Positions 22,161-56,382 of a stretch of 64,000 nt of DNA are shown piece by piece; within the stretch, counting starts at the first letter, position 1, and every line of letters starts with the position of its first letter. Source of the DNA: Bacteroidota bacterium (GTDB lineage: Bacteria > Bacteroidota > Bacteroidia > Cytophagales > UBA9547); contig RDZG01000057.1 in NCBI GenBank assembly GCA_004293915.1, forward strand, positions 1-64,000, read 5' to 3'. Made by a program: the position numbers and the translations under genes. The notes under the pieces were generated by a model, which worked only from the letters and a program-made list of their open reading frames with translations, was not told the origin of the DNA and searched no databases.

Positions 22161-22173
22161 AGTTTCATTTATA

Positions 22174-22205
22174 CCTAAAGGTTGGTGTTCTTCACAACAA
22201 AACTT
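22174..22205. repeat. Partial, degenerate copy of the two-hairpin structured repeat (hairpin-2 half)
   Basis: cctaaaggttggtgttcttcacaacaaaac versus the full copy cctaaaggttggtgttcttcaccaacaaaac at 24017. Confidence 0.6.
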
Positions 22206-22340
22206 TTAAAATCTGATGAAAATCCAACAAAAGCTGGAATTTGCAACACTATTTTAAATTATAAATATTCATCAGCAAAATATAATGAGTTGAATCAATC
22301 TGAATGGACATTTTTGTTTAGTTTATTTGAATAATATTTG

Positions 22341-22372
22341 ATTGATTTGTTGGTAAAAGAACACAAACAAAG
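22341..22372. repeat. Partial copy of the two-hairpin structured repeat, in inverse orientation
   Basis: tttgttggtaaaagaacacaaacaaaggc versus copy 4 tttgttggtaaagaacaccaaaggc at 54769. Confidence 0.5.
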
Positions 22373-22571
22373 GCGGAAAAGTTATTGTAATATGAAATTA
22401 TTGTATATTTATTCGTTAGAAACGAATGTCTCAACCGACCACGTTGAAAACGAGGTCGATTGGGGTAGAAAGAAATACATAAAAACTTAAGATTAACTCT
22501 ACCCAACAACGCAAGTATTTGCACAAAAATGAACATTATAAAATTTAATAAAAATTAATTAATAAAATATC

Positions 22572-23438
22572 ATGGCAAGAAAAAGAAGAAAAATAGGCTT
22601 TTATTATTTAACAGTTTCAATTGACAATTATGACAAACAAGTGGTTTTTAATCAAATTATAACATATATAAAAGATTTACCCAGAGCTTCTAAAAAATTT
22701 AATCTTGGCGATAATAAATTCTGTGTATTAGACTCTGTTACACCATATCTAAACGACAATAGATATAAAATTGTTTTTAAGAGTGCAACACATAGTTTTA
22801 GACCAAATTTGATACATCAACAAACTATAGACGAACGAGAAAATCCTAAACAAATTCAAGAGGGTGAAATAGAAAAAACGCATATATTAATAAAAGCAAT
22901 TAATGGAGATTTAGTTGTAATTTTCGAAAAACATTTAGGGGGGATTGGCATGAATCAATTGGTAAAATATTTAAATAATTTTACAAGTCAATTTCAAAGA
23001 GATCAAAATTTAGAGAGTTTTAGATTTGGACATGAAATAATAGTGAAAGATGATTTTTTGGAAGAAATAGCAAATCTAAATCGAGTAACTAGTGCGGAAA
23101 TATATGTGGATAAACAAATATTAGGTGGTGACGCATTAAATTTCTCAAACAGAACAAATCAGGTGAAACATGAAGTTGTTGTAAGTGTAAAAGCTAATAA
23201 TAGAAGTTCGATAAGTGAATTCGCAAATGACTTATATGCGAGTTTTAATGGAGGTGAAAATAGAATAAATAAAATTAGATTAGTCGGAAAAAATCACGAC
23301 AATAATGATGTTGTAATTAAAACTGACTTTATAGAAAGGCAGGAATATATAAATCCAGAAATGAATACAGAAACTGGTGAAATATCCACTCACGATATTT
23401 TCACAGAAATGGAAAATGTACTTTACAACTTTAATTAA
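22572..23438 (+). CDS. Hypothetical cytoplasmic protein (cargo gene 1 of the inserted cassette)
   Basis: 288 aa. No TM helix. No motif recognised. AT-rich codon use. Followed 1 nt later by a membrane-protein gene. Confidence 0.5.
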   Translation: MARKRRKIGFYYLTVSIDNYDKQVVFNQIITYIKDLPRASKKFNLGDNKFCVLDSVTPYLNDNRYKIVFKSATHSFRPNLIHQQTIDERENPKQIQEGEIEKTHILIKAINGDLVVIFEKHLGGIGMNQLVKYLNNFTSQFQRDQNLESFRFGHEIIVKDDFLEEIANLNRVTSAEIYVDKQILGGDALNFSNRTNQVKHEVVVSVKANNRSSISEFANDLYASFNGGENRINKIRLVGKNHDNNDVVIKTDFIERQEYINPEMNTETGEISTHDIFTEMENVLYNFN

Positions 23439-23439
23439 T

Positions 23440-23952
23440 ATGTATATCGAGTTCTTTCTTCTGATTTTTGATTATTTCAAAACAATTACTAAACGAATAT
23501 TCTTTTTTGAGATCGGTATTCCATTTCTATTAGTAGTTATATTATTCTTTTTTAATAAAAATGAAGATTTTGCTGCTTACAAACTTTTCAAAGAGAATTC
23601 GATAAATATTTTGGGTGTTCTTTTGGGCTTTTCAATTACAGTAATTACAATTTTTACAACTGGAAGTGGAAAAAGTATTGATGAAATAAAAATTTTAAAA
23701 ACAAGGTTTAAAATTGGAACTAACCCAATAACATTATATGAGCTTTTAATAATAAATTTTACTTATTCAGTAGTTTTAGAAGTTTTGGTTATAGTTGGAT
23801 GTTTAGTTATGCCATTATTTTCAAGCAAAGCATATTTTAATATACAACTTAAATTATGTTTATATCTAACATTAGTTTACTTGGTTATCCATATTCTTTT
23901 TTTGACTATGCGAAATTTGACAGATTTCTATTTAATAATCACAAAAAAATAA
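23440..23952 (+). CDS. Small integral membrane protein, ~4 TM (cargo gene 2)
   Basis: ATG at 23440 lies 1 nt after the cargo-1 stop. Four long hydrophobic segments. The ORF-track start at 23377 would overlap cargo 1 and is less likely. Confidence 0.5.
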   Translation: MYIEFFLLIFDYFKTITKRIFFFEIGIPFLLVVILFFFNKNEDFAAYKLFKENSINILGVLLGFSITVITIFTTGSGKSIDEIKILKTRFKIGTNPITLYELLIINFTYSVVLEVLVIVGCLVMPLFSSKAYFNIQLKLCLYLTLVYLVIHILFLTMRNLTDFYLIITKK

Positions 23953-24013
23953 TTCCCTAATCACCCACTCAACCTCGTTTACAACCTTTAGATTTGTAAA
24001 ATATAATTTTTTG

Positions 24014-24127
24014 CCTAAAGGTTGGTGTTCTTCACCAACAAAACTTACATTTAATAAATAATTTGCTATGTTCGTAGATTAGAAAGTTAATGCATGTTGG
24101 TCGAAAAGAAGACCAACATGGGCAGGA
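24014..24127. repeat. Full copy of the two-hairpin structured repeat (copy 2)
   Basis: gcctaaaggttggtgttcttcaccaacaaaac ... catgttggtcgaaaagaagaccaacatgggcagga. Reverse complement aligns along the full length with the copies at 53216-53313 and 54699-54792. Confidence 0.75.
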
Positions 24128-48570: not shown

Positions 48571-50367
48571 TTAATAAATAGAAGAAATTTCTTTTATTAA
48601 TATTTGACTGATATTATTATTTCTATTTGAAATATAATTTTCAGAAATCTCTTCACGCAAATTTGCGAGTTCAATAGTCATAGGAAGGTTTGTATGAGCA
48701 TATTTTTTTTTCTTTTCAATAAAATCATAATTTTTAGCAGCTGAATTCATTTTTGAAGTAATTAATGTCATATTTCCAAGTTTATTAGTATAATCATCTC
48801 TAAATTTCTTTTTAAAATCTTTTTTCCAATTCGAATCTTCAGAAGGGTATTGTGGAATAATATGCTCTAGTGTGCATTTATCAAAGTACAGAATAGAATC
48901 AGAAATCATATCTTCATTATCTTTAAAAGTGGAATACCAATGATACTTTGCAAGAAAGAGTTTTGGAGTTTCATTATCACCATAAAAATCATTTTCAAAG
49001 CCTAACGAAACTTCATCTTTTTCATAATGTTGAGCAAATTCTTTCACTGCATTATCCCACTGTTTTTTATTGATAAAATCAATACATTTATAAACAGGTT
49101 TTGATGAAAATCTCCCAAAACTTAAACAATAATTTATGTATTTATCGTATTCAGCTAAGATAATTTTAGCAATATCATTTTGTTCAATATTTTCTCCGAT
49201 ATTTCTTAAAAGTGATAAAAGAAGATTTAAGCTATATCTTTGATTACCTGCAACTAAAAAGAAATTAATTTTAGTTTTAAAAAATCTTGTTTTAAAATCA
49301 ACATTTAATATTTTTTCATACAGAGGCAAGGCATTTTTAAAATCTTCATAAAAAATTTCAATTTTCTTTTTAGATATTGAATCATTATATTTAGAATCAT
49401 ATAGTGCAATCACATCATTGTAAGAAGAATATTTTTGCTGAGTAGCATTCGTACTTTCCACCCATCTTCCTAAAAAATCATCATTAAAATCATATATATT
49501 CTCAAGTGCCAACCATTTTTTATTAGCATTGATATCTCCAATCTCAGTGAATTTTTTTATTAAAAAATTTCTAAATAAATCTTTGTTAGATAATGGAAGT
49601 CCTCTATTATTTAAAATTTCAAAAATATAATATGCAATAGTGATATCTGAAGTGAGAATTCTAACAACAGAAACCCTTGTTTTTAAAAAATGAATAAATG
49701 TATTTAATTTTAAAAAATCATTTTTTAAAAATTCTTCATTTGTTGTAAACTTTTCACGAATTTTTTTTTCCAAAAAATTTCTGTTATTAAAATACCTTTT
49801 AATTGCTGTCTTCTGTTCTGAACTTGCATTTTTATAACTTTCTTCTTTATATTCTTTACATTCTATAGCATCTTTTAAAACCTCATCAAAATTGTAGCCA
49901 CTTGATTGCTTATCTATTTTTACCTTTTTTTCTAAAGTGATGACTCCTTCTATTATATTATTAAATAAGAGCTCATTAATTGACATCAATCCTGCTTTTA
50001 ATGTATTTAGAAATTCTGGTTCGTTTTTTTGCTCATAAATTACAATTTGTTTATCAAACAAGCATTTGATTGAGGATAAAAGCAACATAAGAGTAGTTAG
50101 TCTTTGTTGCCCATCAACTACATCATAACTAAAATCATTATTATCTATCAAAACCATTGATCCAATAAAATATGGATATTTTTGGTCATTGCTTTCGAAA
50201 TAGTTTACCAAATCATCCCACATTACATTCACCTGATTATTTTGGTCACTTTTTCCAAGACAATCCCAAGAATAAGGTCTTTGATATTCAGGAATGATAT
50301 ATTTAATATCTCTGCCAAAAATTTCATTTAGCACTTTACTTTCTGGTCTAAAACTAATGTCAGCCAT
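48571..50367 (-). CDS. GmrSD-family type IV restriction-like protein (DUF262 ParB/Srx-like N-domain plus DUF1524 His-Me finger C-domain)
   Basis: N-terminal DGQQRLTT motif. C-terminal TLEHIIPQ...N...K HNH-like motif. 598 aa. Confidence 0.7.
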   Translation of the reverse strand: MADISFRPESKVLNEIFGRDIKYIIPEYQRPYSWDCLGKSDQNNQVNVMWDDLVNYFESNDQKYPYFIGSMVLIDNNDFSYDVVDGQQRLTTLMLLLSSIKCLFDKQIVIYEQKNEPEFLNTLKAGLMSINELLFNNIIEGVITLEKKVKIDKQSSGYNFDEVLKDAIECKEYKEESYKNASSEQKTAIKRYFNNRNFLEKKIREKFTTNEEFLKNDFLKLNTFIHFLKTRVSVVRILTSDITIAYYIFEILNNRGLPLSNKDLFRNFLIKKFTEIGDINANKKWLALENIYDFNDDFLGRWVESTNATQQKYSSYNDVIALYDSKYNDSISKKKIEIFYEDFKNALPLYEKILNVDFKTRFFKTKINFFLVAGNQRYSLNLLLSLLRNIGENIEQNDIAKIILAEYDKYINYCLSFGRFSSKPVYKCIDFINKKQWDNAVKEFAQHYEKDEVSLGFENDFYGDNETPKLFLAKYHWYSTFKDNEDMISDSILYFDKCTLEHIIPQYPSEDSNWKKDFKKKFRDDYTNKLGNMTLITSKMNSAAKNYDFIEKKKKYAHTNLPMTIELANLREEISENYISNRNNNISQILIKEISSIY

Positions 50368-50379
50368 TTCTTTTTTATT

Positions 50380-53037
50380 TTAAATATACACTATTTCTTT
50401 TGCTTTTGCCAAAACTTTTTCCAACCCACTTACATCTTTTCCGCCTGCGGTTGCAAAAAATGGCTGTCCGCCTCCCCCACCTTGAATTTCTTTGGCTAAT
50501 TCTCTCACAATGTTGGAAGCATTTAAAGCTTTTTCTTTTACTAAATTATCCGAAATCATTACGGCAATATGTGGTTTTTCGTCCGTAACGGCAACCAAAA
50601 CACAAACCAAATTTTCGATTTTGTTTTTCAACCCAAAAGCAATGTTTTTTACTGCTTCAGCACTTGATACTTCAAGTTTTTGTGCTAAAAAATGAATCCC
50701 ATTTTTAGACTCAGTTTTTGATACCAATTGCAAAACAATATGTGCAACTTGCTCAGCTTCAAATTTTTCTATCTTTTTTTCTAAGCTAGATTTCTCTTCT
50801 AATAATCCATCAATAGCTTTGAGCAAATCTTTTGGATTTTTAAGTTTTTCAGAAATTTCTTGGATTGTTTTTAGCTTTTGAGCTATTATTTTTTCGGCTC
50901 CATCGGCAGTTACAGCTTCAATCCTACGTACGCCAGCAGCAACCGAGCTTTCAGAAATAATTTTTAACAAACCAATTTGCCCAGTAGCCGAAACATGTGT
51001 GCCACCACAAAGTTCGATAGAATAGGCAGGGTCGAAGGTAATTACACGCACAAAATCGCCATATTTTTCACCAAAAAGTGCCGTTGCTCCTAATTCTAAA
51101 GCTTGTTTTATCGGAATATTTCTTTTTTCGTCTAACGCAATATTTTCTCTGATTTTTTGATTTGTAATTTCCTCTACTTTTGCAATTTCCACATCAGCCA
51201 TTTTTGTAAAATGTGAAAAATCAAAACGTAATAATTCGCTATTTACTAGCGAACCTTTTTGTTGAATATGCGAGCCAAGTACCTGACGCAAAGCACTTTG
51301 CAAAATATGTGTAGCCGTGTGATTATTTGTGGTTAATATCCTATTTTCTGTGTTTATAGAAGCCAAAACATTGCTTTGATTAGAAAGCGAAGCCATTATT
51401 TCTTCCACATCATCGTTCGTAAAATGAATAATTAATTCGTTTTCTTTTTTCGTATTTATAACTTCTATTTCTATGGGTGTGTTTTTAAAAACTAATTTTC
51501 CCGTATCGCCAACTTGCCCACCGCTTTCGGCATAAAATGGTGTTTTATCCAACACAATTTGAAATTGCACATTGGTTTTGGTAGTTATTTTTCTGTATTT
51601 AGTTATTTTAGATTCGCATGAAAAAACATCATATCCAACAAATTCTACTTTATCAATTTCATTTATAGTTATCCAATCGCCTGTTTCAGATGCTGCGGCA
51701 TTGCGTGAACGAGCTTTTTGGATTTCCATTTCTTTCAAAAAACCATCTTCATCAATCGACAAATTATTTTCACGAGCAATGAGCGATGTCAAATCAACAG
51801 GAAAACCAAAAGTGTCATATAATTCAAAAACTGTTTTACCCGAAATTATTTTTGTTGCATCATTTTTTTGAATTTCTATTTCCAAAAGTTTAATCCCATT
51901 TTCTAATGTACGCAAAAACGAAGCTTCTTCTTCCTTAATTACATTTGCAACAAATCCTTCTTGTGCTTTGAGTTCGGGAAAAACATCTTTCATTTGATTT
52001 GCCAAAATTGCCACCAGTTTGTAAATAAAAGGCTCTTTTTGACCCAAAAACGTATATCCATAACGTATGGCTCTACGTAAAATTCTGCGAATCACATATC
52101 CTGCTTTGGCATTTGAAGGCATCTGTCCATCTGCAATCGCAAACGAAACCGCACGAATATGATCGGAAATCACACGCATGGCAATATCAGTTTTAGAAAA
52201 TCCTGTAATGCCTTGTTCGTATTTTATACCCGAAATTTTTTCGATTTCCGAAATCAATGGCATGAAAATATCTGTGTCATAGTTCGATGCTTTACCTTGA
52301 ATCACTCGCACCAAACGCTCAAATCCCATGCCTGTATCTACATGTTTATCAGGCAATTGCTCCAAACTGCCATCGGATTTTCGGTTGAATTGCATAAACA
52401 CATTATTCCAAATTTCAATTACTTGTGGGTCGTCATTATTTACCCTTTCTGCACCTGGAATTTTATCAATTTCGATTTGTGGACGCAAATCAATATGAAT
52501 TTCGGAACATGGACCACAAGGACCTGTTGCACCCATTTCCCAAAAATTATCTTTTTTATTACCTTTTAATATATGTGCTTTGTCCACAAGGTTTGCCCAA
52601 ATATCAAAAGCCTCTTGATCGAAAGCCAAGTTTTCTTTTGTATCTCCCTCAAATACAGTAACATACAAGCGTTCTTTAGGAAGTTTATACACTTCGGTAA
52701 GCAATTCCCAAGCCCATTCAATGGCTTCTTTTTTGAAATAATCGCCAAACGACCAATTGCCTAACATCTCAAACATAGTGTGATGATAGGTATCGTGTCC
52801 AACTTCCTCTAAATCATTGTGTTTGCCCGAAACACGAAGGCATTTTTGGGTATCGGCTATGCGTTTTGCAGTAGGAATTTTATCGCCTAAGAAAAAATCT
52901 TTAAACTGATTCATACCTGCATTAGTAAACATCAAGGTTGGATCGTTTTTGAGAACCATCGGTGCCGATGGCACAATTTTGTGTTGTTTTGATTGAAAAA
53001 AATCTAAAAACTGTTGTCTAATTTGTTGAGCGGTCAT
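50380..53037 (-). CDS. alaS: Alanine--tRNA ligase
   Basis: 885 aa. Class II catalytic core. Editing-domain HxxxH...CGGTH. C-terminal DHHA1-like region. Confidence 0.9.
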   Translation of the reverse strand: MTAQQIRQQFLDFFQSKQHKIVPSAPMVLKNDPTLMFTNAGMNQFKDFFLGDKIPTAKRIADTQKCLRVSGKHNDLEEVGHDTYHHTMFEMLGNWSFGDYFKKEAIEWAWELLTEVYKLPKERLYVTVFEGDTKENLAFDQEAFDIWANLVDKAHILKGNKKDNFWEMGATGPCGPCSEIHIDLRPQIEIDKIPGAERVNNDDPQVIEIWNNVFMQFNRKSDGSLEQLPDKHVDTGMGFERLVRVIQGKASNYDTDIFMPLISEIEKISGIKYEQGITGFSKTDIAMRVISDHIRAVSFAIADGQMPSNAKAGYVIRRILRRAIRYGYTFLGQKEPFIYKLVAILANQMKDVFPELKAQEGFVANVIKEEEASFLRTLENGIKLLEIEIQKNDATKIISGKTVFELYDTFGFPVDLTSLIARENNLSIDEDGFLKEMEIQKARSRNAAASETGDWITINEIDKVEFVGYDVFSCESKITKYRKITTKTNVQFQIVLDKTPFYAESGGQVGDTGKLVFKNTPIEIEVINTKKENELIIHFTNDDVEEIMASLSNQSNVLASINTENRILTTNNHTATHILQSALRQVLGSHIQQKGSLVNSELLRFDFSHFTKMADVEIAKVEEITNQKIRENIALDEKRNIPIKQALELGATALFGEKYGDFVRVITFDPAYSIELCGGTHVSATGQIGLLKIISESSVAAGVRRIEAVTADGAEKIIAQKLKTIQEISEKLKNPKDLLKAIDGLLEEKSSLEKKIEKFEAEQVAHIVLQLVSKTESKNGIHFLAQKLEVSSAEAVKNIAFGLKNKIENLVCVLVAVTDEKPHIAVMISDNLVKEKALNASNIVRELAKEIQGGGGGQPFFATAGGKDVSGLEKVLAKAKEIVYI

Positions 53038-53080: not shown

Positions 53081-53215
53081 AAAAAAAGCTTAGGATATAA
53101 AAAAATGAGGAAGGTTACTTAAAATATTCGTGCAATGAAACTAAAATTCGTTTCAAACCGTACTATTTCCAATTTATAGGGTTTTTATTGTAGTAGCATT
53201 AACTAATTCTACAAA

Positions 53216-53313
53216 TCCTGCCCTTTTTGGAGTTCTTCTCCATCAAGCTACTATTGTTTCTTTACGGCTTTCAAATATTATGTTTGTTGGTGAAGAACAC
53301 CAACCTTTAGGCG
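53216..53313. repeat. Two-hairpin structured repeat, copy 3
   Basis: tcctgccc-tttttggagttcttctccatcaag-...-ttcaaatattatgtttgttggtgaagaacaccaacctttaggc. Confidence 0.75.
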
Positions 53314-53351
53314 TAAAGATATATATCTGATTTTTTTAGACGAATAGCTTA

Positions 53352-53567
53352 TTGAAAAGGGAGAGCCACTTTAGTGAGTACTACAGCCAGAAAACTGGGA
53401 GTAATCATATGGACAATGATTGTAAAAAAACACCTTACAAACCACCCACCGAATATCTATTCTTCGACCAAAAAAGAAAGCAAAAGGTAGTAGAAAGAAC
53501 AAAGAAAAATATTGCTAAATTTGCACTCAAACCCGAAGAGGTAGGTTTTATAACTAACTCATTATGA
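53352..53567 (+). CDS. Small ORF translationally coupled (ATGA overlap) to the downstream Abi-like gene
   Basis: 71 aa from a TTG start, or 53 aa from the ATG at 53409. Stop overlaps the next start. Uncertain whether it is coding. Confidence 0.25.
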   Translation: MKRESHFSEYYSQKTGSNHMDNDCKKTPYKPPTEYLFFDQKRKQKVVERTKKNIAKFALKPEEVGFITNSL

Positions 53568-54667
53568 TGATAAATAAAAAAGTTAGTCAGAATTTTAAAA
53601 GAAACAACAATATGAAAATGAACGATGTTTTAGGACTAGGTAAAATTTTACCAATTGACAAATTACTCGATATTTTATCTAGCGTTACTTCAAGACTTTC
53701 TAAACCGTATTTTGACAGAAAAGACATTGACACTAAAGCGTATGAAATAAAAAAATTAGCAGAGGCAAAGGCAGAAGAAATGAAAATTATTTCATTGGCA
53801 ATTAAAGAAAATTATTTACTGACTGGAGGAATTGAATACAAAGAAAATAGCATAGGTATAACTTCACCAAAAGAATTATCAATTTCAAAAACTGAAAATT
53901 CAATATTAATTAATCCTAGCTTAGAAGATAGAACAAACGATAGAATAATTTTACAACAGGCGAAAAAGCAATTGAACATTGAAAGTATTACTGCATACGC
54001 TGCCGAAGAACTTAAAAATGAGCCACCTGTAACGGACGAACCAGTAGATGAGGACTGGAAAACTAGATTTTTCAATATCGCTGAGGATATTTCAAGTGAT
54101 GAAATGCAAGCACTTTGGGGACGAATATTAGCTGGTGAAATAAAACAACCCAAATCGTATTCACTAAGAACATTAGAAGTATTGAAAAATTTATCTAAGG
54201 AAGAAGCAGAAGTTTTTACAAAATTTGCAAATATTAAAATTGTCTCTGTTGATACGAGTGTAATCTATAATCAAGATAATGGAGCTTTCCTTGAATCCGA
54301 ATTTGGTATTACATTTACTGATAGCTTACTATTGACTGAATTGGGCTTAATAGCAAGTGAAAGCAACTTAGAGCTAAGTCTGACTGAAACCAACCAAGTA
54401 GCGCAAACGAATGCCTTATTTATAGGTAATAAGGGTATAGTTTTGAACCGTGGTATAAATACTCCAAAACAACCTATTAATGTTCTAGTATTTACAAAAA
54501 CTGGGGCTGAATTATCAAAACTAATCGAGCCAATTCCTAATGAAAATTACATTAAAAAAATATGCTCAAGTTTTAAACATCCAAATGTAAAAATAGAATA
54601 TGGTGACATTACATTTTTACCAAATGGACAAATAATAATGAATAACAACGTTGAATATAATGAATAA
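53564..54667 (+). CDS. DUF2806 / Abi-alpha-like protein (putative abortive-infection family)
   Basis: Central block DWKTRFFNIAEDISSDEMQALWGRILAGEIKQP...LRTLEVLKNLSKEEAEVF matches, as I recall it, the conserved W..FF..S.EMQ.LW..LAGE signature of the DUF2806/Abi_alpha families. Confidence 0.5.
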   Translation: MMINKKVSQNFKRNNNMKMNDVLGLGKILPIDKLLDILSSVTSRLSKPYFDRKDIDTKAYEIKKLAEAKAEEMKIISLAIKENYLLTGGIEYKENSIGITSPKELSISKTENSILINPSLEDRTNDRIILQQAKKQLNIESITAYAAEELKNEPPVTDEPVDEDWKTRFFNIAEDISSDEMQALWGRILAGEIKQPKSYSLRTLEVLKNLSKEEAEVFTKFANIKIVSVDTSVIYNQDNGAFLESEFGITFTDSLLLTELGLIASESNLELSLTETNQVAQTNALFIGNKGIVLNRGINTPKQPINVLVFTKTGAELSKLIEPIPNENYIKKICSSFKHPNVKIEYGDITFLPNGQIIMNNNVEYNE

Positions 54668-54698
54668 AACTACTACTAACATTTCGCCTTTATTGGTA

Positions 54699-54792
54699 TC
54701 CTGCCCTTGTTGGAGTTCTTCTCCAACAAGCTTCGATTGTTTATCATTAAGGTTTTCAAATATTATGTTTGTTGGTAAAGAACACCAAAGGC
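54699..54792. repeat. Two-hairpin structured repeat, copy 4
   Basis: tcctgccc-ttgttggagttcttctccaacaag-...-ttcaaatattatgtttgttggtaaagaacaccaaaggc. Hairpin 1 is a perfect 10-bp stem. Confidence 0.75.
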
Positions 54793-55173
54793 AAAATTAT
54801 GGTAGTGATTTTTAAAAAAAAATTCGTTTATTTGGCATTGAAGAAGGTAAAAAAGAACCATCCATTGTTGATTTTACAAAAAATTATACTGAATTTAATA
54901 TTTCAAACGCATGAAAACAAAAAGCAATGCACTCGTTTTAGACCCAATTGAGTTGATAGGAAAAGTTAAAAAAAGGTATGAAAACGCTCCAATTTTCCCG
55001 AAAAAAATGGAAGAGGCTAAAGCAAACTTGCACCTATATCAAAAATTACATCAACAATATGAAAAATAAATAATATTTTTATAGCCATTTTGATTAAAAA
55101 CTAAACAAAACCGTTTTCAAATAAAAGAGCAAGACTAATTTAATAATCTTGCCCTTTTTATCAACTAAAAATT

Positions 55174-56382
55174 TTATTTCAAACTTGCCAAAGCATTTTT
55201 TAAACGTTTGCAACCTTCGATCAATTTGGCATCGGCAGCGGCATACGAAATTCTGATGCAGCCTTCGTAGCCAAAAGCACTTCCTGGCACGGTAGATAAA
55301 AATGATTTGTTCAGTAACCACATACTCAAATCATCCGAATTATTAATGGTTGTAGTTCCGTCTGATTTACCAAAATAAGCACTAACATCTGGGAAAAAAT
55401 AAAATGCTCCTTTTGGATTATTGATTTTTAATCCTGGAATTTCTTTCAACAAACCATACATTAATTCTCTGCGTTTGGCAAACGTTTTGGTCATTTCCAT
55501 ACTCGAGCTCAAATCGGCATTGATACCAGCCAAAGCCGCTTTTTGGGCAATAGAGCAAGTTCCAGATGTGATTTGGCTTTGCATTTTGTCTATTGCATCG
55601 GCAATTAATTTGCTCGAAGCCGAATATCCCACACGCCAGCCTGTCATGGCATATCCTTTCGAAAATCCATTTACTGTTACCACTCTATCTTTTATGGCAT
55701 CAACCGAACCCATCGAAAAATGTGGCTCACCATAATTGATATATTCATAAATTTCATCAGCAATCACATAAATATTTGCATTTTGCTCTACCACTTTTGC
55801 AATTTCTAGCAATTCGGCTTTGCTAAAAACAGTACCCGTTGGATTACAAGGCGAAGAAAACATAATTACTTTTGTACGGTCTGTAATCGCATTTTTCAAA
55901 TCTTGAATAGAAGGTTTAAAATCGTTTTCCAATTTTCCAACCAATTCAATCACCACGCCTTCGTTTAGTTTTACTAATTCTGCATAACTAACCCAATATG
56001 GCGAATATATAATTACCTCATCTCCAGGATTTACCAACACAGAAAGTGCATTTGCCAAGGCTTGTTTTGCACCTGTAGAAACAATTATGTTTTCTGCTTT
56101 CCAGTCGATATTGTTATCGCGTTTTAATTTTTCGGCAATTCCTTTTCTTAATTCTGGAATACCAGCAACAGGAGTATAATACGAAAAATTATCCATAATT
56201 GCCTTAGCACCAGCTTCTTTGATATGCATTGGAGTTGCAAAATCGGGTTCGCCAAGTGTTAGGTTCACTACATCGTTGCCAGCATTGGCAAGTTCTCGAG
56301 CTTTTTTTGACATCGCAATGGTTTGCGACTCAGCCAAAGCATTGATTCTGTCTGTTAAAATGGAAGCGGTTAATGTGGACAT
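55174..56382 (-). CDS. Pyridoxal-phosphate-dependent aminotransferase, class I (aspartate aminotransferase-like)
   Basis: 402 aa. PLP-lysine region SKGYAMTGWRVGY. Fold-type I pattern. Confidence 0.8.
   Translation of the reverse strand: MSTLTASILTDRINALAESQTIAMSKKARELANAGNDVVNLTLGEPDFATPMHIKEAGAKAIMDNFSYYTPVAGIPELRKGIAEKLKRDNNIDWKAENIIVSTGAKQALANALSVLVNPGDEVIIYSPYWVSYAELVKLNEGVVIELVGKLENDFKPSIQDLKNAITDRTKVIMFSSPCNPTGTVFSKAELLEIAKVVEQNANIYVIADEIYEYINYGEPHFSMGSVDAIKDRVVTVNGFSKGYAMTGWRVGYSASSKLIADAIDKMQSQITSGTCSIAQKAALAGINADLSSSMEMTKTFAKRRELMYGLLKEIPGLKINNPKGAFYFFPDVSAYFGKSDGTTTINNSDDLSMWLLNKSFLSTVPGSAFGYEGCIRISYAAADAKLIEGCKRLKNALASLK

Follow-up and report, generated by a model that had tools for sequence, protein, structure and literature searches.

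In a 64,000-nt stretch of contig RDZG01000057.1 (positions 1 to 64,000; hereafter the window) from the Bacteroidota bacterium assembly GCA_004293915.1, we found an intact gene of the DUF2806 family between two housekeeping genes, alaS and a class I/II aminotransferase gene. The gene lies in a segment, 53216-54793, that begins and ends with directly oriented copies of a structured repeat and is missing from close relatives. The reading that we hold to be probable is a single-protein abortive-infection candidate of the Belisama/Abi-alpha type on a repeat-bounded mobile unit.

An intact DUF2806 gene

The open reading frame (ORF) at 53564-54667 on the plus strand (367 aa) matched the DUF2806 profile PF10987 with 168 bits (Pfam whole-protein score; E 3.7e-49, cut-off 24.5). 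The match spanned aa 122-333 and profile positions 1-220 of 221. An earlier note on this DNA had assigned the ORF to a DUF2806/Abi-alpha group from a sequence block, which the ORF indeed holds, and had proposed searches with PF10987 and PF14337. The DUF2806 part of this assignment was borne out, but the Abi_alpha part was not. PF14337 (Abi_alpha/DUF4393) reached 17.3 bits (E 0.0051), below its cut-off of 29, and matched aa 176-270 to profile positions 43-149 of 196; a precomputed PF14337 match was present in one of the 120 best homologues. The NCBIfam model TIGR03899 gave 134.3 bits in two stretches, under its curated cut-off of 155.65, and the protein appears to be related to TIGR03899 yet outside the equivalog.

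A protein database search returned 1,146 homologues at E <= 0.001. The best 120 of these were at least 53% identical, almost all were 344-391 aa long, and every one carried PF10987; named homologues come from Tenacibaculum, Aequorivita and metagenome-assembled genomes of Bacteroidia. When 48 sequences were aligned, every start fell on the methionine at window position 53612. The first 70 residues from this position were strongly conserved and the 16 codons upstream of it were not. In a metagenome contig (L002) with 100% identity, the gene call also begins exactly at 53612. We therefore conclude that the real gene is 53612..54667 (plus strand), encoding 351 aa and starting with MKMNDV. The reading frame is intact, and all columns that are invariant in the 48-sequence alignment are present in it.

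The AlphaFold model of the protein (mean predicted local distance difference test score 72; 80-89 for the greater part of the C-terminal half, beginning near residue 190) has helices in its N-terminal part, then a disordered linker and a core of helices and sheets. No membrane segment was found in the protein (maximum 19-residue hydropathy 1.26). Exact-sequence look-ups of the 367-aa ORF, of alaS and of a 450-aa neighbour gave no match, and neither PADLOC (2023, v2.0.0; its models predate Belisama) nor PHROGs gave a useful match for the DUF2806 protein.

The small upstream ORF is an IS110 relic

The earlier note had read a small ORF at 53352-53567 as the first gene of a two-ORF unit, translationally coupled to the 367-aa protein through an ATGA overlap. 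The overlap is physically there (ATG at 53564, TGA at 53565-53567), but the partner gene is not. By tblastn with the Pontibacter kalidii plasmid transposase WP_266206411 (451 aa), the region 53320..53567 (plus strand) is what decay has left of the 3' end of an IS110-family transposase gene, and corresponds to about aa 372-451. The alignments covered aa 372-450 at 51-67% identity, with 67% over 43 aa in frame 3 and 51% over 47 aa, including a stop, in frame 1. The relic thus consists of the last ~79 codons, split over two frames by a frameshift and interrupted by one in-frame stop; its transposase homology was also found at E 3e-21. Homology to the DEDD transposase C-terminal domain is present in it; the intact transposase gene and the upstream non-coding (guide RNA) region are not. 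No further match to the IS110 transposase was obtained in the window by tblastn. The protein database holds 46 similar short transposase fragments, so decayed 3' ends of this IS110 lineage are common. At 53516, the relic contains TAAATTTG, a match to the motif TAnnTTTG.

The operon version, with a small upstream protein coupled to a 367-aa Abi-alpha protein, would agree with the ATGA overlap and with the uninterrupted 71-aa, TTG-start ORF that exist in the sequence. Yet this small ORF is one frame of a frameshifted transposase tail, the checked homologues begin at 53612 and none has such a partner, and the same transposase tail is found before unrelated genes elsewhere. The ATGA is the transposase stop codon beside an in-frame ATG that the homologues do not use. 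Because the supposed first gene is a transposase relic and the homologues start at 53612, there is no two-gene operon, coupling is unsupported, and a single intact gene is left. On these homology and start-site data the operon version is already refuted, and we regard it as barely credible.

A strain-specific segment between two repeats

The repeat at the left end of the segment, r1 (53216..53313, plus strand), consists of CCTGCCC, a hairpin TTGGAGTTCTTCTCCA, an AT-rich spacer, a second hairpin GTTGGTGAAGAACACCAAC and CCTTTAGG. At the right end, r2 occupies 54684..54793 (plus strand; core 54698-54790), and its extended ends match those of a third copy, r3. Aligned over 53215-53303 and 54698-54788, r1 and r2 are direct repeats with 89-91% identity (blastn E 5e-29), and their motif counts were reached in 0 of 100 shuffles. 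Within each of them, the two hairpins are inverted copies of each other. The claim that two directly oriented structured repeats surround a ~1.6-kb unit in the alaS upstream region was thus confirmed. Two more copies, both in the opposite orientation to r1 and r2, are the full copy r3 (24013-24127) and the partial copy r4 (22168-22201); a profile search of the window revealed none beyond these four. The repeats matched no Rfam family at gathering or E-value thresholds, and only chance matches of microRNA precursors to the long hairpin were seen. Both r1 (53279-53286) and r2 (54764-54771) contain TATGTTTG, which matches the Bacteroidetes -7 motif TAnnTTTG and points towards the DUF2806 gene.

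The protein encoded by the aminotransferase gene (55174..56382, minus strand) was identical on three metagenome contigs. One of them, L092, represents the same strain as the window. The second, L093, was 96% identical at the nucleotide level over 56662-54794, continued with 3.3 kb foreign to the window and matched again at 53215-53181. The third, L094, diverged from the window at 55123 and encodes an outer-membrane-like 231-aa protein. In both L093 and L094, with 96-97% nucleotide identity in the flanks, the DUF2806 unit is absent and other genes are found at the same spot. As the homology of L093 stops exactly at 53215 and resumes at 54794, the window-specific segment extends from the start of r1 to the end of r2 (53216-54793; 1,578 bp).

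The 3.3 kb of L093 comprise the remainder of a DUF6934 gene, an HTH_19 gene, a 177-aa and a 409-aa gene, and a toxin-antitoxin pair of DUF433 and PIN-like genes. Remnants of two of these genes flank the window unit. On the right, the last ~40 codons of the DUF6934 gene (54796..54914, plus strand) carry an internal stop; the gene is intact in L093. They are followed by an orphaned 52-aa ORF (54911..55069, plus strand), which in L093 is the third gene of an HTH_19, DUF6934, 52-aa operon. On the left, the last ~13 codons of the PIN-like toxin gene (VELVNATTIKTL and stop; 53175..53215, minus strand) remain; in L093 this gene is full length to the contig end, beside the DUF433 gene. Since both flanks in the window are truncated gene ends, the window state is derived. 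Within this alternative content (L093 1596-5238), the operon has a genuine ATGA overlap between its last two genes, and the 409-aa gene encodes an NHL protein with a type IX secretion tail.

At the junctions of the unit lie CAAAT and CAAAAT, which do not match perfectly, and a microhomology of 7 nt, AAATTAT; in L093 the site holds the 3.3-kb replacement. The unit may have arrived by transposition with duplication or by microhomology-mediated replacement. The comparison bears out the view of an accessory, repeat-flanked gene, with two close relatives that lack it and have other genes in its place. Conservation in all relatives, which the earlier note had named as speaking against an accessory gene, was not found. 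The unit is accessory and lies in a hypervariable spot between alaS and the aminotransferase gene.

Directly after the aminotransferase stop codon, a G+C-rich hairpin with a T-run behind it (55117-55161, minus strand) looks like the terminator of this gene. It accounts for short chance similarities to r1 that a repeat finder reported.

Integron-type cassette boundaries

Homology of the window to other DUF2806 loci was confined to about 53573-54682. In the window and in five independent homologue loci, GTTAG..AATT occurs ~26 nt before the ATG and AACTACYGCTAAC directly follows the stop codon. The window sequence GTTAGTC (53586) aligns with GTTAGTA, GTTAGCG and GTTAGCA of the homologue contigs L005, L003 and L089, and thus has the form of a GTTRRRY-type core site. 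It opens the motif GTTAGTCAGAATT (53586..53598, plus strand), the core-site-like (R'-like) 5' boundary of the cassette. The conserved 3' boundary of DUF2806 cassettes is AAAACTACTACTAACA (54668..54683, plus strand), an inverse-core, R''-like motif with CTAAC at which the homology to other cassettes ends.

In L005, the same ~115-nt element follows a SLATT gene and the DUF2806 gene. A related element follows the DUF2806 gene in L003; the site after the next gene there has the 5' arm of this element alone. Imperfect hairpins with CTAAC paired to GTTAG, an architecture that attC sites have, are formed by both elements of L005 and by the first one of L003. In the flanks of the homologue contigs that were covered, no integrase was found, and these loci resemble small integrase-free attC clusters. 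The cassette that precedes DUF2806 in L005 (206-1623) has genes for a ThsB-like TIR protein and a SLATT membrane protein, 27 nt apart, with an attC-like site of its own; judged by its sequence, this Bacteroidota array includes a defence-like cassette of two genes.

In the window, GTTAGTC (53586) and ACTAACA (54677) are retained as boundary motifs, but the attC body is not. At its 3' end, the R'' motif ACTAACA is present and the rest is replaced by r2; the 3' arm with which it could pair belongs to the DUF6934 coding sequence and has GGT in place of GTT. We considered whether r1 and r2 are attC-type sites of the organism itself, so that the unit would be an ordinary cassette placed by an integron integrase in an attC cluster without an integrase. 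The retained R'-like GTTAGTC and R''-like ACTAACA and the clear cassette nature of the homologues would fit this explanation. So would the folding of r2 and its flanks, from the stop codon on, into one 145-nt imperfect hairpin (-41 to -44 kcal/mol) of about the size of large chromosomal attC sites. However, the 3' partner arm of this hairpin, AATTATGGTAGTGATTTT, is DUF6934 coding sequence that also occurs in L093, which has no r2, and it carries GGT where GTT is needed. Furthermore, r3 lacks AAC/GTT boxes, r1 does not form a single hairpin, the strain-specific segment ends at the outer ends of r1 and r2 and not at G/TT sites, and none of the nine window ORFs of 305-419 aa that were scanned matched Phage_integrase or another tyrosine recombinase. 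This explanation is quite unlikely, and r2 as the cassette's own attC site was dropped as the main interpretation on the evidence of L093, where the 3' arm is native DUF6934 coding sequence.

Possible targeting of attC-like ends by an IS110 lineage

The 13-mer GTTAGTCAGAATT also follows the stop codon of this IS110 lineage, with one G/A difference, in two unrelated records. Taking the window relic, an intact copy on a Pontibacter plasmid and a relic before an AhpC-like gene in Zunongwangia-like contigs as three independent records, we found GTTAGTCAG(A/G)ATT 6-18 nt after the transposase stop and a gene start 20-30 nt further on (right flanks: window 53568-53598; L001 2750-2775; L111 4262-4285). 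The left flank of the Pontibacter plasmid copy resembles the body of an attC-like site (GCCAACAC..ATGCATGC...GCATGCAC). A common breakpoint of the relics at HLSDFF was considered and rejected, as L111 has frameshifted transposase sequence further upstream.

IS1111/IS110 elements target one end of attC sites or repetitive extragenic palindromic sequences via a guide RNA (PMC11187229). The right flanks suggest a Bacteroidota IS110 lineage that may likewise target attC ends. The arrangement in the window resembles the IS1111-attC group and other IS1111/IS110 elements directed at attC sites or repetitive extragenic palindromic sequences (Tetu & Holmes 2008; Post & Hall 2009; Siddiquee et al. 2024, PMC11187229) in that a DEDD-type IS110-family element stands at one end of an attC-like site beside a cassette. 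Here the likeness consists of a decayed 3' 'footprint' and of the right-flank 13-mer at three independent insertions. Unlike in the IS1111-attC group, known from Pseudomonas, the transposase belongs to the long IS110 type, with 451 aa in the intact relative, and not to IS1111, the host is a member of the Bacteroidota, and the left end is missing.

A possible link between IS110 elements and the r repeats came from a metagenome scan for the 26-nt r hairpin, which matched a single contig, L091 (1143-1440). There, 267 nt separate the hairpin from the start codon of a different IS110-family transposase gene downstream of it, which appears to be full length; hairpin and gene are oriented to each other as r1 and the relic are. 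The repeat-like sequence of L091 stops at the same nucleotide (CCTTTAGG) as r1, r3 and r4. This single case is a hint that the r hairpin may be a target or an edge of IS110 elements.

Proposed origin of the unit

We propose that the segment 53216-54793 is a 1,578-bp mobile unit between two direct copies of a ~100-nt hairpin-rich repeat, whose cargo would be a fragment of a Bacteroidota integron-type cassette array. An IS110-family element would have inserted at the R'-like end of an attC-like site and left its 3' footprint, behind which stands a single complete DUF2806 cassette with the core GTTAGTC, the gene at 53612-54667 and the inverse core ACTAACA. The unit would have replaced ~3.3 kb with the DUF433/PIN-like pair, the 177-aa and 409-aa genes, the HTH gene and most of the DUF6934 gene.

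MITE-flanked composite units consist of DNA that is mobilised by the pair of miniature inverted-repeat elements on either side of it. The window unit would resemble such composites, since r1 and r2 are direct copies of a short structured element with mutually inverted halves and the repeat pair with its cargo behaves as one presence/absence unit. A second pair, r4 and r3, brackets another accessory two-gene module in the window. Unlike in typical MITE composites, the copies are few and only 89-91% identical. Neither a clean target-site duplication nor a cognate transposase was identified for the r1-r2 unit. It is a tentative and rather doubtful further step that r1-r4 represent a previously undescribed miniature mobile element of an uncultured Bacteroidota lineage, pairs of which would pick up cassette-array fragments (here the IS110 footprint and the DUF2806 cassette) and carry them to chromosomal hotspots, together with a Bacteroidota IS110 lineage targeting the attC-like R' end (right flank GTTAGTCAG(A/G)ATT).

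The module between r4 and r3 (22168-24127) contains a 288-aa ORF (22572-23438) and an overlapping 191-aa hydrophobic ORF (23377-23952), which may encode a membrane protein. Relatives of the 288-aa ORF are named DUF4747 by some sources, and 91 homologues were found in Flavobacteriia and Sphingobacteriia. For neither ORF was there a significant Pfam match (the 191-aa ORF had one below the cut-off) or a PADLOC match. The module could be another accessory or defence cargo.

Predicted function of the DUF2806 protein

Belisama is a single-gene DUF2806 anti-phage cassette of the sedentary chromosomal integron of V. cholerae (Darracq et al., bioRxiv 10.1101/2024.07.02.601686). It reduces phage plaquing and aborts infection, with strong, unrecoverable culture lysis at high multiplicity of infection, is toxic when over-expressed, and was reported by blastp in 70 genera of Pseudomonadota (bioRxiv 10.1101/2024.07.02.601686); it is now called by DefenseFinder (PMC12724379). 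Abi-alpha (EF2833 of prophage 6 of Enterococcus faecalis V583) makes cells lyse prematurely and, according to its authors, has a distant similarity to PF10987 (PMC6356687). The proposed link of DUF2806 to abortive infection was thus supported by the literature, which ties the family to Abi-alpha and includes one tested anti-phage member, Belisama.

Matched by DUF2806 domain family and description, Belisama is the closest tested relative of the window protein. Both are accessory single-gene systems with a DUF2806 domain and no recognisable enzymatic or membrane domain, and the loci homologous to the window carry the gene as an integron-type cassette. Unlike Belisama from Pseudomonadota, the window protein belongs to a Bacteroidota-centred clade and has an extra conserved N-terminal helical region of ~100 aa, and its gene lies outside a cassette array, in the repeat-bounded unit beside the IS110 relic. 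With Abi-alpha it shares the single-protein organization and the weak match to the central part of the PF14337 profile. In contrast to Abi-alpha (272 aa, mostly prophage-borne, Firmicutes), it has 351 aa and is chromosomal or cassette-borne in Bacteroidota.

The neighbours of several homologues are recognised defence genes. In L005, which encodes a DUF2806 protein 89% identical to that of the window, ThsB_TIR and SLATT genes adjoin, and in L089 the DUF2806 gene is in a cluster with OLD/AAA_15 and UvrD, SMODS with ThiF/JAB and DUF6602, and a KAP NTPase. Some homologues in other Bacteroidota contigs stand beside Thoeris-like TIR/SLATT, Gabija-like or CBASS genes. In L087, the homologue is beside HigB toxin-antitoxin genes and transposases. 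The distribution over mobile elements also fits: distant homologues were found on 316 mostly conjugative plasmids, in one phage and in 15 IMG/VR contigs.

We propose that the DUF2806 protein acts as a soluble single-protein abortive-infection sensor and effector, which would be silent in healthy cells. On phage infection, it would make the infected cell lyse early or die, which would prevent the release of phage progeny. The TAnnTTTG sequences in r1 (53279) and in the relic (53516) are candidate -7 motifs of its promoter.

Several points weigh against this proposal. The clade of the window protein is known from sequence alone and is tied to Belisama and Abi-alpha by family and description; the Abi_alpha and TIGR03899 scores were both under their cut-offs, and PADLOC (2023) had no match. 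Some homologues are in non-defence settings, beside dnaK or V-ATPase genes, and DUF2806 genes also belong to the backbone of small conjugative plasmids, which would suit a role in plasmid maintenance just as well. As regards the movement of the unit, the imperfect CAAAT/CAAAAT pair is not a clean target-site duplication, and the AAATTAT microhomology offers an alternative. The repeat has four copies in the window and its sole outside match is the 26-nt hairpin in one metagenome contig.

Alternatively, the DUF2806 protein may serve the mobile element through addiction, maintenance or another selfish role and not act against phages, with defence islands merely collecting mobile DNA. On the 316 mostly conjugative plasmids, which are enterobacterial and 31-44 kb in size, the distant homologues are backbone genes. 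These plasmids, the homologues that adjoin housekeeping genes, the missing PADLOC match and the toxicity of over-expressed Belisama, as expected of a toxin, would all suit a selfish role. However, Belisama lowers phage plaquing and aborts infection, several homologues lie inside clusters of recognised defence genes, and no antitoxin-like or other conserved partner gene was seen beside the DUF2806 gene in six loci. We judge a purely selfish role to be unlikely.

Still less probable is an unexpressed passenger, that is, a promoterless cassette stranded outside its integron and functionless here. Consistent with this, cassette leaders are only ~26 nt long, no integron promoter lies upstream, the neighbouring alaS is divergent, and a scan for sigma-70-type promoters was at background (11 sites vs 9.9 expected). 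On the other hand, the ORF is intact with all residues that are invariant across the 48 sequences, and the TAnnTTTG motifs in r1 and the relic have the right orientation. The anti-phage candidate remains our preferred interpretation of the DUF2806 gene.

The alaS neighbourhood

The earlier note had also described the alaS locus as a landing pad for defence genes, with a GmrSD gene on the other side of alaS (50380..53037, minus strand). The GmrSD gene was confirmed. Directly downstream of alaS, at 48571..50367 on the minus strand, lies a candidate type IV restriction gene of the GmrSD type, in which both the DUF262 and the DUF1524 domain were matched (GmrSD_N, 110.9 bits, 1.1e-31; GmrSD_C, 68.8 bits, 6e-19). 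The gene also matched PADLOC HEC-06/Orf5 models down to E 5.5e-48. Its neighbours on the same strand are tightly packed against it, with a gap of 12 nt to alaS and of 2 nt to a GNAT acetyltransferase gene. Its G+C content of 23-27%, compared with 33-38% in alaS and other neighbours, hints at a foreign origin.

As a landing pad, the locus stood the comparison on one side. The upstream side of alaS is demonstrably hypervariable in the relatives, but for the downstream side the evidence of a variable site is suggestive only. A look-up of the GNAT protein for relatives on the GmrSD side matched the same strain alone. The nearest alaS among 185,579 species genomes, from Thermoflexibacter (Cytophagales), was 64% identical, and none of 80 distant alaS loci had DUF2806, GmrSD, the aminotransferase or aroA within 10 kb of alaS.

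Significance

The DUF2806/Belisama-like defence candidate described here belongs to a known system type and is not a new system; it is its mobile context that is instructive. The locus would offer a rare nucleotide-exact view of a cassette leaving its array and landing in a chromosomal hotspot. An IS110 lineage that targets attC ends would be relevant because IS110 elements choose their targets by guide RNA (seekRNA). That DUF2806 genes travel as integron-type cassettes supports the notion of cassette arrays as stores of anti-phage genes beyond Vibrio. With the findings, DUF2806/Belisama, a single-gene defence family validated only recently and so far reported in Pseudomonadota, extends to a large clade of Bacteroidota as well, and an intact, compact 351-aa member from a different phylum may be a useful comparison point for the mechanism of the family.

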